From: an uncultured Solirubrobacteraceae bacterium
Lineage (GTDB): Bacteria > Actinomycetota > Thermoleophilia > Solirubrobacterales > Solirubrobacteraceae
Assembly (NCBI GenBank): GCA_963782575.1
Contig: CAWAKI010000004.1
Location: 586,746-650,745, forward strand
DNA: 64,000 nt
Direction of reading: 5' to 3'
The translations under genes and the position numbers were made by a program. This document shows positions 48,573-55,466 of this stretch, in pieces (the first letter of the stretch is position 1; every line of letters begins with the position of its first letter). The notes under the pieces are model-generated. The model was not told the DNA's origin and ran no database searches. It saw only the letters and a program-made list of their open reading frames with translations.

Positions 48573-48573
<1 letters not shown>
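43818..48573 (+). CDS. gltB: Glutamate synthase large subunit (many frameshifts)
   Basis: [61 protein letters not shown] domain. Confidence 0.96.
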
Positions 48574-50138
<1,565 letters not shown>

Positions 50139-50142
<4 letters not shown>

Positions 50143-50924
50143 CGCCCGGCGCGCGCGCCGTCTGCGCGCGCTACATCCGCCGGCGCGTCCTGCGGCGTGC
50201 CGGCCAGCAGCGCCCGGCGCAGGATCATCTCCAGGGCCCCGCTCTCGCGCAGCGCTTTTGCGATGTGGTGACCGCCGCGGCCGAAGCGGTAGAGCCGCGT
50301 GCCGGGAACCCCGCCGATCCGTTCGGCGTGCAGCCGGTCCACGCGATATCCCTCGTCGAAGTACACCTCGTAGCGCGTGTGGCCGTTCGCCACGCGGGGC
50401 AGCGCCTCGCCCAGGTCGAGCCAGCGCTCCTCGAGCGCGTTCGCCGCGCGCAGCTCGCCGAGCCGGCGGTCCCAGTTGTGGTCGTTCATCTCGCCCAGCA
50501 CGTCGAGGTCGACGACCGTCTGCGGCGCGAAGCAGAGCGCGACGTCCGCGCGCAGCAGCGTCCCGAAGATGAGCGCCGCGTAGCCGCCCATCGAGTTCCC
50601 CGTCACGACCAGCCGCTCGACGTCGTGGCGCGCGATCAGCCGGCCCAGTGAGTCGCCGACGGCCTCGATCGAGCGCCCGTGGCCGATGATCCCGAGGTGG
50701 TACCAGGCCTGACGCGGGTCGCGCACGAACAGCCGTTTCACGGGCAGCCCGCCGGTCGCTCCGAAGAACTCGAACGGCGGCATCCCGACCTCCTGCGCGA
50801 GGCCGCCGAACGCCACCAGCAGCGTGCTCGAGTCGGCGCTCATGTCGAGGCTCAGCCCGCGTTTGAAGAGCCGGCGGGCGAGCCGCAGGCGCCGCGCGAT
50901 GCTCATGCCGCTCCTCTGCGCCAT
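50139..50924 (-). CDS. Alpha/beta hydrolase fold protein
   Basis: LVAFGG, GNSMGG nucleophile elbow, GGHHIA; ATG at 50924. Confidence 0.75.
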
Positions 50925-51011
50925 CGGCGCCAGAGTGTACGCGCCGCTGCTTGACGCGGCCAAGGGGACGGGTCGGCGTCTGCCGGGAGCCGCCAAGATA
51001 CATTTACCCCT

Positions 51012-52433
51012 GTGAGCGGATCGAGCAACGGGGCCGGCGCGCCCGCGGGCGGGCGGCCGGCGCCGGGCGAGCGTGCTCTGCCGCGCACCTGCCTGATCGG
51101 CGCGGGCTCCTCCGGGATCGCCGCCGCCAAGGCGCTGCACGAGCGCGGGATCCCGTTCGACTGCTTCGAGAAGTCCGACCGCGTCGGCGGCAACTGGGTG
51201 TTCGAAAACAAGAACGGGATGTCCGCCGCCTACCGCGACCTGTTCATCAACACCTCGCGGCCGCGCATGGAGTACTCGGACCTCCCGATGCCGTCCTGTT
51301 ACCCGGACTTCCCGCACCACTCCCAGATCGCCGCCTACTTCGAGCAGTACGTCGACCACTTCGGCTTCCGTGACCGGATCACCTTCGAGACCGCCGTGCA
51401 GCGCGCCGTCCGCGAGCCGGACGGCAGCTGGACCGTCGAGCTCGAGGGCGGCGAGCGGCGCAGCTACGAAGCGCTGCTCGTGGCCAACGGGCACCATTGG
51501 GACCCGCGCTGGCCGGAACCGGCCTTCCCGGGGAGCGACGGGTTCTCCGGCGTGCAGATGCACGCCCACTCCTACATCGACAACTCGAGCTTCGCCGGAA
51601 AGCGGGTGGTGGTGCTCGGGATGGGGAACTCCGCGATGGACATCGCCGTCGAGTCCTCCTACGTCGCCGAGCGCACCTACCTGGCCGCCCGCCAGGGCGT
51701 CTGGATCGTCCCGAAGTACGTGTTCGGCAAACCGGTCGACCAGATCCGTAACGACCCGCGGGTCCCGTTCAAGGTGCGCCAGCGGATGGTGCAGCGGATC
51801 ATCACCAGCTACTCGGGGCCGCCCGAGCGCTACGGGCTGCCGAAGCCGAACCACCGCTTCGGCGAGGCGCACCCGACCGTCTCGGGGCGGATCCTCGATC
51901 GCATCCAGCACGGCACGATCACGCCGAAGCCCAACATCGCCTCGCTCGGAGTGGACACCGTGCGCTTCGAGGACGGAACCGAGGTCGAGGCCGACGTGGT
52001 CGTCTACTGCACCGGGTACAAGATCACCTTCCCGTTCTTCGACGAGCACCTGATCTCGGCCCCCGACAACCGCATCGAGCTGTTCCGGCGCGTCTTTCAC
52101 GCGGAGCTCCCGAACGTCGTGTTCATCGGGCTGCTGCAGCCGCTCGGCGCGATCATGCCGCTCGCCGAGGCGCAGGGAGCCTGGGTCGGGGACTACCTGT
52201 GCGGCGACTACGCGCTGCCCGAGCAGGACGAGATGCGCGCCGACATCGCCGCCGACCAGGAGGCGATGCGCAGACGCTACGTCGCCTCCAAGCGGCACAC
52301 GATCCAGGTCGACTTCGACGACTACCTCCACGCCCTGGGCAAGGAGCGCCGCGCTGGAGCGGCCCGCGCCCGTGCCCGCGGCTACCTTCCCCCGGCGCTA
52401 TGCCGACCTTCTGCCGCCACAATCGCTTCATAG
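51012..52433 (+). CDS. Flavin-containing monooxygenase (FMO/class B)
   Basis: IGAGSSG, GGNW, FSGVQMHAHSY (FxGxxxHxxxY), GMGNSA, YCTGY. Confidence 0.92.
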   Translation: MSGSSNGAGAPAGGRPAPGERALPRTCLIGAGSSGIAAAKALHERGIPFDCFEKSDRVGGNWVFENKNGMSAAYRDLFINTSRPRMEYSDLPMPSCYPDFPHHSQIAAYFEQYVDHFGFRDRITFETAVQRAVREPDGSWTVELEGGERRSYEALLVANGHHWDPRWPEPAFPGSDGFSGVQMHAHSYIDNSSFAGKRVVVLGMGNSAMDIAVESSYVAERTYLAARQGVWIVPKYVFGKPVDQIRNDPRVPFKVRQRMVQRIITSYSGPPERYGLPKPNHRFGEAHPTVSGRILDRIQHGTITPKPNIASLGVDTVRFEDGTEVEADVVVYCTGYKITFPFFDEHLISAPDNRIELFRRVFHAELPNVVFIGLLQPLGAIMPLAEAQGAWVGDYLCGDYALPEQDEMRADIAADQEAMRRRYVASKRHTIQVDFDDYLHALGKERRAGAARARARGYLPPALCRPSAATIAS

Positions 52434-53440
52434 AGCGCTGCCCGATCTGCCGCAAGACGCTGCCCGGCGGCGAGCCGGCGGCCGGCGCTCAGAGCAGGCG
52501 CGCGAGCGGAGCGGGCGGGGTGCGCGGCACCGCTGAGGCACCGCGCCGCCCCCGCGCCGAAGGGGTTCGCGTCAGGCACGAGGGCCGCACGGCCGAGGAC
52601 GGCTACCGCAACGCCCTGGCGCCGGGCCTGCGCGCATCCGGCGACGCCGAGCGTCTGGCGCAGGAGATCTCGTTCGCCAGCGGGCGGCTCGCCGCGCTCG
52701 CGATGGAGCCGCCCGGGCTCTACGGGCAGGCGCGCGGGCTCGGCGCCAGCGATCTCGAGCGCGCCACCTGGATCTGCTTCCTGCTCGCCTACCTGTGCCC
52801 GACAGAGGATCCGGATCCGTTCGCCAGCGTGGCCGCCGTGCTCGAGGCGGCCCCGGGTCCGTTCCAGATCGGCAGCGAGCTCGATCTCGACGCGGTGGCC
52901 CTCGGCCCACGCACCTCGCACGAGCACGGGCGAGGCACAGCCACGCTGCGCGCGTATGCCGACTGGGTGCGCCGCGGCGGCCGCTCGGCCGCCGGTCCGG
53001 CGGCGGGCGCCGGGGGCGCACCTGGGGCGCAGGAGCAGGCGTTCACCGGCGATGCCGGCTGGAGCCCGCAGCGGCGCTTCGAGCGGCTGTTCGAGCGCCT
53101 CGCGCTGCCCGGGCTCTCGCGCGGCGCGCGCTTCGAGCTGCTGGTCGTGCTCGGCCGCCTCGGTCTCTACGAGCTGGGGCCGGACTCGCTGCATCTGTCA
53201 TCTACGCGCGGCAGCGAGGACTCGACCACGGCGGCCGCCAAGCGCGTGTTCGGAATCGGCGACCCGCTGCTGCTCGAGCGTCGCGCCGACGGCCTCGCCG
53301 TGGCGGCGGCCGTGCCGCGCGAGTCGCTCGACCTCGCGCTCTACAACTGGGACGCGCCCGTCCGCGCCGACATGGGCTTCTCGCCGGAGCTGCGCGACGA
53401 GGCCGCCGACGCGCGTCTGGCGGCTGCGCTCGGGCTCTGA
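52400..53440 (+). CDS. Hypothetical protein: N-terminal CxH..CxxC zinc finger plus aGPT-pyrophosphorylase clade 3-like domain
   Basis: MPTFCRHNRFIERCPIC; ERATWICFL, GTATLRAYADWV, FERLFERL..LSRGARFELLVVLGRLGL, LDLALYNW. Confidence 0.65.
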   Translation: MPTFCRHNRFIERCPICRKTLPGGEPAAGAQSRRASGAGGVRGTAEAPRRPRAEGVRVRHEGRTAEDGYRNALAPGLRASGDAERLAQEISFASGRLAALAMEPPGLYGQARGLGASDLERATWICFLLAYLCPTEDPDPFASVAAVLEAAPGPFQIGSELDLDAVALGPRTSHEHGRGTATLRAYADWVRRGGRSAAGPAAGAGGAPGAQEQAFTGDAGWSPQRRFERLFERLALPGLSRGARFELLVVLGRLGLYELGPDSLHLSSTRGSEDSTTAAAKRVFGIGDPLLLERRADGLAVAAAVPRESLDLALYNWDAPVRADMGFSPELRDEAADARLAAALGL

Positions 53441-53577
53441 GGCGCGAGCGCTCCGGGACCGGCGGCGGGCGAGGCCGGAGGCGGGCTCTGCGGTCGCGGC
53501 CCGGGAGGCCGGAGATGCCGTCCACACCGGCACCTACAGTGGCGGGCACAACGTTCCCCCGGACCCGGAGCCGAACG

Positions 53578-54033
53578 ATGCCACTCTGCTTCATACAGCC
53601 CCAGGACGCGATTCGAGTCATCGCCGGGTCGGTCGGGCGGGAGGCCCGCCGGCAGCTGGTCGGAGAGGTGGTACGCGCATGGGTGGACGACATCCCCGAC
53701 CAGGAACTGTCGGTCCACTACGCGAAGGCGGTCGCGGACCTCGACGACGACGACCTGCACCTGCTGGCCGCCTGGCACGCGTCGCTCGAGGTCGGCCAGC
53801 CGATCCCGAACACGGAGTTCCTCGTCGGCGTCTTCCCGAGCCTCGGCGAGAACCGGCGCGAGGCGCTCAAGATCGCCGCCGGGTTCCGCGGCGAGGAAGC
53901 CTTCCAGGCCGGCGTCTCCGAGGACCAGGCGCTCGACACGGTGCTGCCGCGGCTCTCGCACGAGCGGGCGACGCAGCTCGCGGAAGAGTGCATTCAGCTG
54001 TACATGTGGGACCGCCTCGGCTGCGACAACTAG
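53578..54033 (+). CDS. Hypothetical protein (151 aa, acidic, helical)
   Basis: Intact ORF with host-like codon use; GGAG RBS upstream. Confidence 0.7.
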   Translation: MPLCFIQPQDAIRVIAGSVGREARRQLVGEVVRAWVDDIPDQELSVHYAKAVADLDDDDLHLLAAWHASLEVGQPIPNTEFLVGVFPSLGENRREALKIAAGFRGEEAFQAGVSEDQALDTVLPRLSHERATQLAEECIQLYMWDRLGCDN

Positions 54034-54736: not shown

Positions 54737-54788
54737 GCGCCCCAAGCTACCCGAGGGCGCGGATCGGCAAGCCGCTAGGCTGGCGGCC

Positions 54789-55466
54789 ATGTCCGAGGCG
54801 ATCGAGGCGTTCTCGGCGCACGCGCCGGACTACGACGCCAAGCGGCGCGCGATCGTGCCGTGCTTCGACGACTTCTACGGGACGGCGGTCGAGCTGCTCG
54901 GGCTGCGCGGCGGCCCGGTCGAGCGCGTGCTCGACCTCGGTGCGGGTACCGGGCTGTTGAGCGAGGCCGTGCTGGCGGCCCACCCGCAGGCGCGCGTCGT
55001 GTTGCTCGACGGCTCGGGCGAGATGCTCGCGCGGGCGGCGGCGCGCCTGCCGCGCGAGTCGGTCGAGATCGTCCGGGCTGACATGCGCGAGCCGCTGCCC
55101 GACGGCCCGTTCGACGCGGTCGTCTCATCGCTTGCGATCCACCACCTGGAGCCGCCCGAGCAGCGCGAGCTCTACCTGCGGATCCCCTCGCTGCTGCGCC
55201 CCGGCGGCGTGTTCGTGAACGCCGAGCACATCGCCGCACCGACCGAGTGGCTCGAGCGGGCTTGGCGGCGGATGTGGCGGGCGGCGGCGGGCGCCGCGGG
55301 CGCCGATGCTGCCGAGCTCGACGCCGCCGACGTGCGGATGGAGCTGAACCGTTGCGTGACGCTCGAGCAGCAGCTGCAGTGGCTCGGCGAGGCGGGCCTC
55401 GTCGATCACGACTGCTTCTTCAAACAGATGCACTTCGCGGTCCTCGGCGGCTGGCGCGCGGGCTAG
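54789..55466 (+). CDS. Class I SAM-dependent methyltransferase (CmoA/Tam-like)
   Basis: VLDLGAGTG, FDAVVSSLAIHHL, LRPGG. Confidence 0.88.
   Translation: MSEAIEAFSAHAPDYDAKRRAIVPCFDDFYGTAVELLGLRGGPVERVLDLGAGTGLLSEAVLAAHPQARVVLLDGSGEMLARAAARLPRESVEIVRADMREPLPDGPFDAVVSSLAIHHLEPPEQRELYLRIPSLLRPGGVFVNAEHIAAPTEWLERAWRRMWRAAAGAAGADAAELDAADVRMELNRCVTLEQQLQWLGEAGLVDHDCFFKQMHFAVLGGWRAG

Follow-up and report, generated by a model that had tools for sequence, protein, structure and literature searches.

We analysed a window of 64,000 nucleotides (contig CAWAKI010000004.1 of assembly GCA_963782575.1) from an uncultured Solirubrobacteraceae bacterium, and within it one gene, hereafter the focal gene, encoding a protein of 346 residues (P0001). 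Although highly diverged, this protein is genuinely homologous to clade 3 of the alpha-glutamyl/putrescinyl thymine pyrophosphorylases (aGPT-Pplases), a family tied to DNA hypermodification, and it has an HhH-glycosylase-like fold. It differs from its canonical relatives in three defining features, lacking the catalytic cysteine, the NHRKY loop and the partner genes, and it is encoded by a vertically inherited chromosomal gene that is fixed as a single-copy core gene of the Solirubrobacteraceae. The explanation that we favour, with a probability of roughly 0.5, is a domesticated, DNA-binding, base-flipping protein that serves as a reader or catalyses a reaction needing no thiol and probably hydrolytic, its role being of a housekeeping, repair-like kind. 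An earlier note on this DNA had proposed a domesticated chromosomal version that may read, repair or defend against modified bases instead of installing them; the loss of cysteine and partners together with vertical inheritance fits domestication and a protein that does not install hypermodifications by the known chemistry.

Homology to clade 3 was detected by Pfam and by profile comparison. The Pfam family aGPT-Pplase3 (PF18746) matched the focal protein with 28.1 bits (E 1.7e-6; gathering cut-off 25), the match being limited to residues 213–276 (profile positions 161–225 of 279), and returned 25.6 bits for the focal gene in a six-frame search of the genome; a canonical clade-3 protein from Agromyces intestinalis (FLP10_12020, P0393), homologous to the focal protein over the helical domain, scores 278 bits with the same family. 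The match to Pfam ADDT (PF18724) was weak and sub-threshold (E 0.012). When a focal-family profile built from 36 sequences was aligned by hhalign with a profile of 23 canonical clade-3 sequences, the probability was 98.4% (E 5e-15) over 224 columns, covering residues 71–320, and alignment with a single canonical clade-3 protein gave 97.3%. The earlier note had set blocks of the focal sequence beside a clade-3 motif pattern and judged the two collinear. That pattern was accurate, the 23-sequence consensus reading DEAxWLVFLFVHFG, GFGNHRKYESL, GTG..ESYV.WV, RFGR.ARFDYL, GARLLL and EDAxCNWQK, and the 98.4% alignment upholds the collinearity. The canonical and focal clades, both mainly actinobacterial, share LPG, DEAxW, Y..W, the RFGR.ARF[DE].L hairpin and the closing N-W of the active-site motif. 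Other sequence comparisons were negative: tblastn of the focal protein against 50,697 phage records found no match even at E 10, phmmer against PDB sequences found none, and hhalign of the focal-family profile against the single sequence of gp46 from phage PaMx11 found none. The canonical clade-3 profile gave only a low-probability local match to gp46, over the cysteine motif. Since profile matches to gp46 are weak or absent, our mapping onto that protein is confined to E243, C247 and W249.

The structure of the focal protein was modelled with AlphaFold2 (AF2), giving a predicted local distance difference test score (pLDDT) of 89.5 and a predicted template modelling score (pTM) of 0.81. Residues 30–46 of the linker are disordered in the model and residues 80–343 are all-helical, in keeping with the low-complexity linker and following helical domain described beforehand. 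The top VIA-align match was PaMx11 gp46, a glycinyltransferase acting on 5-PmdU (8z2m_A; Z 9.4, root-mean-square deviation 4.1 over 206 residues), followed by the queuine-salvage enzyme QNG1 (7u07 and 7ugk; Z 9.1–9.2) and then by about twenty HhH DNA glycosylases (Z 8.8–5.0). The glycosylases, at ranks 4–25, include MUTYH, NTHL1, Mag1, Tm1821 Ogg, MutY, AlkA, EndoIII and MagIII; ranks 1–25 hold only the phage transferase, QNG1 or HhH-GPD-type glycosylases, and unrelated folds start at about Z 4. Foldseek on viral models (BFVD) yielded a mycobacteriophage amino acid:DNA transferase as its best match (E 6.9e-6), and ESM Atlas searches agreed, returning the same families as BFVD and VIA-align. 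Of the profile and structure checks, those by Pfam, hhalign, VIA-align and BFVD produced matches, while Foldseek of the model against the PDB gave nothing at E<1e-3; we accordingly base the assignment of the fold on the VIA-align, BFVD and Atlas results. In common with HhH-GPD glycosylases (MutY/MUTYH, Nth/NTHL1, AlkA, Mag1, OGG), the focal protein has a two-lobed helical fold and an HhH hairpin, but it has no Fe-S cluster loop, and the Pfam matches listed up to E 1 do not include HhH-GPD. QNG1/DUF2419 matches the fold as well as the phage transferase does, yet no sequence-level relationship was detected, and its substrate is queuosine 5'-monophosphate rather than DNA. By language-model features the focal protein also falls in the same superfamily as HMUDK_hel, the helical domain that accompanies 5-hmdU DNA kinases (PF18723, for example PaMx11 gp50; score 0.90–0.91), although PF18723 does not match it in Pfam and no kinase partner was found for its gene.

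To our knowledge, the only characterised members of the aGPT-Pplase superfamily belong to clade 2 and all are from phages; we found no experimental data on clade 3 in the accessible literature. Clade 2 enzymes (PF18724: PaMx11 gp46, M6 gp51 and ViI gp247) couple glycine or serine to 5-PmdU in DNA by way of a covalent Cys-C6 intermediate, the cysteine attacking C6 of 5-PmdU to generate an exocyclic methylene that is then attacked by the amino acid, and they need a 5-hydroxymethyluridine DNA kinase (5-HMUDK) and a dUMP hydroxymethylase (PMC8989533, PMC11472151). The cysteine and a proximal glutamate are essential in M6 gp51 and ViI gp247 (PMC8989533), and Cys247 is the proposed C6 nucleophile of PaMx11 gp46 (PMC11472151), whose motif reads E243-T-I-L-C247-K-W. 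Clade 2 provides the best solved structural match to the focal protein in gp46, at about 12% identity, and E-T-I-L-C-K-W of gp46 corresponds to D-L-A-L-Y-N-W of the focal protein, which has neither such a cysteine nor, as far as our searches found, such partners.

The same cysteine separates the focal clade from canonical clade 3. In the canonical set the Cys of E-D-A-x-C-N-W-Q-K is invariant (23/23). At the equivalent position, 315, the 170 relatives of the focal protein that we aligned have Ala in 103 cases, Phe in 14, Tyr and Ser in 9 each and Trp in 4, with Cys in none, and no cysteine is conserved anywhere in their helical domain. The D-L-A-L-Y reading remarked on in the earlier note, in place of E-D-A-x-C, is borne out by the alignment, and the change extends to the clade, which reads D-L-A-L-[A/F/Y]-N-W where the canonical proteins have an invariant EDAxCNWQK. 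In the remainder of the motif, the acidic residue four positions before the cysteine site (general acid / metal ligand), an invariant Glu in the canonical set, is Asp in 147 and Glu in 7 of the 170 relatives at position 311, a conservative change, and N316 and W317 are retained. The second difference concerns the GFGNHRKYESL loop, present in all 23 canonical sequences, opposite which the focal clade has a short LGPRxSH stretch with gaps facing NHRKY. The focal protein probably handles DNA bases differently from its hypermodifying relatives.

Partner genes were sought beyond the locus. The earlier note had seen no hypermodification partners in the window; there are indeed none there, and a six-frame hidden Markov model search of the focal genome (9 contigs, 71.7% complete) found no HMUDK_HMUD1 (PF18748, the P-loop domain of the kinase), HMUDK_hel (PF18723) or Tet_JBP dioxygenase (PF12851). 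Because of this limited completeness, the kinase searches were extended to five relatives that are 92–100% complete, and these likewise had no match to PF18748 or PF18723, so that the genome-wide search for a kinase of 5-hydroxymethyluracil (5-hmU) came back empty in all six genomes. As a positive control, the PF18723 model detects its domain in phage PaMx11, where it forms a gene of its own (gp50) adjoining a P-loop kinase gene (gp49). ThyA-family genes (PF00303) are present in two of the five near-complete relatives. With kinase and TET/JBP not found and a ThyA-like gene in only two of five relatives, no source of 5-hmU or 5-PmdU is evident. In one genome of the same genus (G022), a partial, divergent match to the thymidylate synthase family (C1:1056259-1056801 (-); 85.7 bits, profile positions 50-232) is similar to the ThyA-like gene that accompanies clade-3 genes of the canonical type.

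Canonical clade-3 genes have a patchy distribution and often lie on plasmids, whereas the focal gene is part of the syntenic core of a single family. The former are spread across Microbacteriaceae, Arthrobacter, Kribbella, one Solirubrobacteraceae metagenome-assembled genome and proteobacterial plasmids, typically beside ThyA-like and HTH-ImmA/IrrE genes. In Agromyces intestinalis (G396; L037:58-3025), the aGPT-Pplase3 gene directly follows a divergent ThyA-like gene (79 bits) and adjoins an HTH and IrrE/ImmA peptidase gene; plasmid homologues likewise abut ImmA/IrrE genes. No HMUDK_hel match was found in the Agromyces intestinalis genome, and this locus is a compact, uncharacterised clade-3 system. 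The focal gene, on the other hand, is single-copy and occurs in 23 of 24 sampled genomes of its genus and, in two different samples of other genera of the family, in 7/8 and 10/12 genomes. Outside this family, a full-length profile detected nothing in the order, class or phylum apart from the canonical Agromyces protein, in a phylum-level search whose stricter first look may have let weak matches escape. The conserved order is gltB-gltD, (FMO), focal gene, an open reading frame (ORF) of 151 codons, a sufT-like FeS_assembly_P gene, WS/DGAT and ispH, where FMO denotes a flavin-containing monooxygenase gene that is not always present; an all-against-all search of the neighbours revealed nothing conserved beyond gltB/D, FMO, the 151-aa ORF and the sufT-like gene. 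More than 2500 homologues of the focal protein are known to us, nearly always 330–360 residues long. The sequencing runs listed with the focal sequence are soil-metagenome DNA only, with small shares, and none is RNA.

Translation of 52400-53437 (+) yields an intact ORF of 346 codons whose product begins MPTFCRHNRFIERCPIC and contains all six of the sequence blocks quoted in the earlier note; the coordinates of the gene, its parts and its neighbours are collected in the table. A longer open frame from 52199 was rejected as a spurious upstream extension, the MPTFCRHNRF motif being the start in all orthologues. The FMO ORF ends at 52433, so the 34-nt overlap reported between the two genes holds if the ATG at 52400 is the start, and the orthologues all begin at MPTFC.

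Table. Features of the focal gene and its surroundings (positions in the window; residues refer to the focal protein).
Feature	Position	Strand	Basis
Focal gene, 346-aa zinc-knuckle and aGPT-Pplase3-like protein	52400..53440 (stop codon included)	+	ORF and translation
N-terminal zinc knuckle, residues 1-19, C5-x-H7-x6-C14-x2-C17	52400..52456	+	Ligand conservation
Arg/Gly/Ala-rich basic disordered linker, residues 20-62	52457..52585	+	pLDDT 48-64
Helical HhH-glycosylase-like domain homologous to aGPT-Pplase3/ADDT, residues 63-346	52586..53437	+	hhalign, VIA-align, BFVD
HhH-like hairpin LPGLSRGARFELLVVLGRLGL, residues 235-255	53102..53164	+	Inside the Pfam-matched part
Clade-specific invariant block AAKRVFGIGD, residues 279-288	53234..53263	+	Conservation of K281, R282 and D288
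Degenerate active-site motif SLDLALYNW, residues 309-317	53324..53350	+	Equivalent of canonical V-l-E-D-A-i-C-N-W
Flavin-containing monooxygenase (FMO), upstream, context only	51012..52433	+	Pfam FMO-like, E 2e-86
151-aa acidic helical protein (P0002), downstream, context only	53578..54033	+	No Pfam match
SAM-dependent methyltransferase, start uncertain, context only	~54783..55466	+	Pfam Methyltransf_25, E 6e-20

Conservation was mapped over the 170 family members. At least 90% conservation was found at 63 positions, the zinc ligands among them: C5, H7, C14 and C17 are all retained in 157–158 of the 170 sequences, and the knuckle is the most conserved segment of the protein (mean 0.85), although it matches no Pfam family. 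The linker, with eight Arg and no Asp in the focal protein, has low column conservation (0.51), and residues 1–62 together have a pI of 11.5. Canonical clade 3 has neither the zinc knuckle nor the basic tail. In the hairpin, which hhalign aligns with the canonical RFGR.ARFDYL..L.KL.L block, residues G238, R241, R244, L248 and G252 are at least 90% conserved. The AAKRVFGIGD block aligns with the canonical ATGPL.GARLL block, and in it K281 is kept in 158, R282 in 164 and D288 in 157 of the 170 relatives. Near-invariant residues belonging to the focal clade itself include D67, G68, Y69, D82, E89, R96, R225, R226, R229, E232, R233, K281, R282, D288 and R295. This pattern is that of a constrained, neo-functionalised protein and not of a decaying one. 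No match to the focal protein was found in NCBIfam, PADLOC or PHROGs. In a genome of a sister family (G026; L038:1006-1716 (-)), a 237-aa protein carries a STFCRHNRF..CPICSK knuckle and a basic linker ahead of a C-terminal domain that is unrelated to the focal domain and has no Pfam match; since the knuckle is paired there with an unrelated domain, the knuckle and tail look like a portable module in the order.

Taken together, we suggest that the protein stems from an offshoot of the clade-3 aGPT-Pplases/amino-acid:DNA transferases that was domesticated and thereafter inherited vertically. The HhH-glycosylase-like two-lobed scaffold, with which the phage enzymes hold duplex DNA and turn a base of thymine type into a pocket, has been kept together with the pocket-motif residues D311, N316 and W317; a zinc knuckle and a very basic, disordered N-terminal tail have been gained, and the cysteine nucleophile, the NHRKY loop and every pathway partner lost. 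The present protein may work alone as a nucleic-acid-binding base-flipper, with the zinc knuckle and Arg-rich tail tethering it to DNA while the helical domain inspects a thymine- or uracil-type base in a putative pocket formed by D67, Y69, E89, K281, R282, D288, D311 and W317. The base would then be merely read, or processed by chemistry that needs no thiol, for which hydrolysis of a repair-like kind is the most plausible form; the role would be a housekeeping one and not the installation of hypermodified thymines.

Several points weigh against this model. DNA as the substrate, as opposed to RNA or a nucleotide, is deduced solely from the relatives, and reading, repair and processing are predicted roles. 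The nucleotide-acting QNG1 matches the fold equally well, and the helical domain is itself acidic (pI 5.1). The pocket residues were assigned by sequence alignment to canonical clade 3 and by motif matching to PaMx11 gp46, not by superposition. HhH-GPD glycosylases carry their catalytic Asp about 20 residues after the hairpin, where the focal protein reads G-P-D at 260–262; D262 is Asp in only 116 of the 170 relatives (68%), with Gly in 21 and A, N, Q, S, P or W in others, so a classical glycosylase mechanism is unsupported. Finally, the focal gene evolves faster than its neighbours (49–64% versus 75–94% identity within the genus), which is unusual for a central housekeeping enzyme.

The evidence bears on several other readings. 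We consider it unlikely that the protein is catalytically active and acts on a 5-substituted pyrimidine of the cell's own nucleic acid by a new chemistry without thiols; such an enzyme might be a glycosylase for 5-hmU-type or hypermodified thymines, for example, or might install or erase a chromosomal (or tRNA) base modification that has yet to be discovered. The equal fold match of the QNG1/DUF2419 structures and the phage transferase (Z 9.1–9.2 versus 9.4) raises the possibility that the protein acts on RNA or free nucleotides, as a QNG1-like hydrolase or salvage enzyme or as a protein handling tRNA 5-substituted uridines. RNA would be as fitting a ligand as DNA for a zinc knuckle with an Arg-rich tail, and the tRNA base 5-carboxymethylaminomethyluridine (cmnm5U) has its DNA analogue in N-alpha-glycinylthymidine. 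The sequence homology, however, is to the DNA-acting aGPT-Pplase/ADDT families and not to QNG1, and there are no RNA-modification genes among the neighbours, which makes this reading rather unlikely in our estimation. A role in queuine salvage was considered in particular and set aside as unsupported by the phyletic pattern of TGT (tRNA-guanine transglycosylase): this gene is present alike in families with the focal gene (f1, 12/12) and without it (f4, 11/11), and there is thus no phyletic link to queuine salvage. Anti-phage defence, in which the protein would act as a sensor recognising hypermodified or 5-hmU-containing invading DNA and blocking or excising it, is attractive in that a catalytically altered copy of a phage enzyme makes a plausible decoy or reader and in that the focal protein evolves faster than its neighbours; aGPT-Pplase domains have also been flagged as candidate defence domains by DefensePredictor, a prediction that is unvalidated (PMC13092281). 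Set against this, the gene has one copy per genome, occurs almost throughout one family and keeps its place at a housekeeping locus whose other members (gltBD, FMO, sufT-like FeS_assembly_P, WS/DGAT and IspH) include no defence genes; PADLOC matched neither the focal protein nor the 151-aa protein, and there is no effector domain and no conserved partner. We therefore regard a defence function as quite doubtful. Very improbable, in our view, is that the protein is still an amine/amino-acid:DNA transferase that hypermodifies host thymine by means of another nucleophile or by direct displacement. The family homology is solid, the acidic residue, Asn and Trp of the motif are kept, and a direct displacement route was deemed possible in principle for such enzymes (PMC8989533), but the essential cysteine is absent from 170/170 relatives with no other cysteine conserved in its stead, the NHRKY loop is lost, and neither the 5-hydroxymethyldeoxyuridine (5-hmdU) DNA kinase nor TET/JBP was found in the focal genome or the near-complete relatives.

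The earlier note had also raised the possibility of a small modification or defence module made up of the focal gene, FMO, the 151-aa ORF and an S-adenosylmethionine (SAM)-dependent methyltransferase. The last two do follow downstream on the same strand, as reported, so that all four genes are co-oriented; FMO overlaps the start of the focal gene by 34 nt and the 151-aa ORF adjoins the focal gene in 16/16 same-genus loci. Comparison across loci dissolved the grouping. FMO is upstream in 11 of the 16 same-genus loci and missing in five, gltD lying directly 5' of the focal gene in the others, and a counterpart of the methyltransferase is near the focal gene in two of the 16, once at a different position, and missing in 14. 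A sister family (f4) without the focal gene has the 151-aa ORF in 11/11 genomes, and in several genera of the focal gene's own family this ORF lies at a distance from the focal gene (32 kb in G346; 3.5–4.5 kb in G184 and G311) or on another contig (G197, G335 and G517). Synteny within a genus is not independent evidence, and that the focal gene and the 151-aa ORF adjoin each other reflects gene order shared locally by close relatives. The four-gene module is largely refuted, and we now give it hardly any credence.

The 151-aa ORF is an order-wide core gene, separate from the focal gene. Its product shows 62–94% identity throughout the order, and 55 columns are invariant among 18 sequences, a conservation far above that of its neighbours, and in sister families the ORF stays near the sufT-like gene. 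The protein (pI 4.5) belongs to no Pfam, NCBIfam, PADLOC or PHROG family, and its model is a helical bundle (pLDDT 82) with only generic helical-bundle fold matches (best Z 7.4 over 60 residues). A TACAGT -10-like hexamer is located at 53534-53539, about 38 nt before its ATG. When the DNA upstream of this ORF in the sister family was scanned for an analogue of the focal gene, shadow ORFs dominated at 72% GC; the window itself has a G+C content of ~72%. In a few genera, fusions of an ECF sigma factor and a ZAS anti-sigma zinc finger lie between the focal gene and the 151-aa ORF, one example being a single polypeptide with Sigma70_r2, r4_2 and zf-HC2 domains (L069:9248-10543 (+)), with similar ORFs in L062, L065 and L067.

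Two further features were observed upstream of FMO. The gene for the glutamate synthase small subunit, gltD (48573-50130), is in four pieces and three frames, with breaks at ~48985, 49230 and 49720 relative to an intact orthologue. These breaks, in an assembly of 9 contigs at 71.7% completeness, point to indel errors of long-read assembly and not to a pseudogene; the focal ORF is unaffected, since it is full length relative to its orthologues. Between gltD and FMO, a minus-strand ORF of 262 codons (50142-50927 (-)) without a Pfam match is probably a strain-specific insertion, because a counterpart is missing from all 27 of the related loci that we compared.

Some homologues of the focal protein already bear the Pfam name in databases. 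The present analysis adds the quantification of cysteine loss over 170 sequences and the profile–profile and solved-structure links; it also shows a syntenic distribution restricted to one family, refutes the four-gene module and sets the 151-aa ORF apart as an order-wide gene. An abundant soil family, with thousands of metagenomic homologues, retains one constrained, syntenic copy of the gene, a clean natural example of the exaptation of a DNA-hypermodification scaffold, and the clade's own invariant residues D67, Y69, K281, R282, D288, D311 and W317 define a testable pocket. Should the protein merely bind DNA, it would still caution that the name 'alpha-glutamyl/putrescinyl thymine pyrophosphorylase' on such genomes is not evidence of hypermodified DNA. 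If it reads or processes modified pyrimidines, it could furnish a detection reagent for such bases and would extend what is known of HhH-fold chemistry. If it is an active thiol-independent enzyme, a piece of phage thymine hypermodification would have become fixed as a vertically inherited housekeeping function in the Solirubrobacteraceae.

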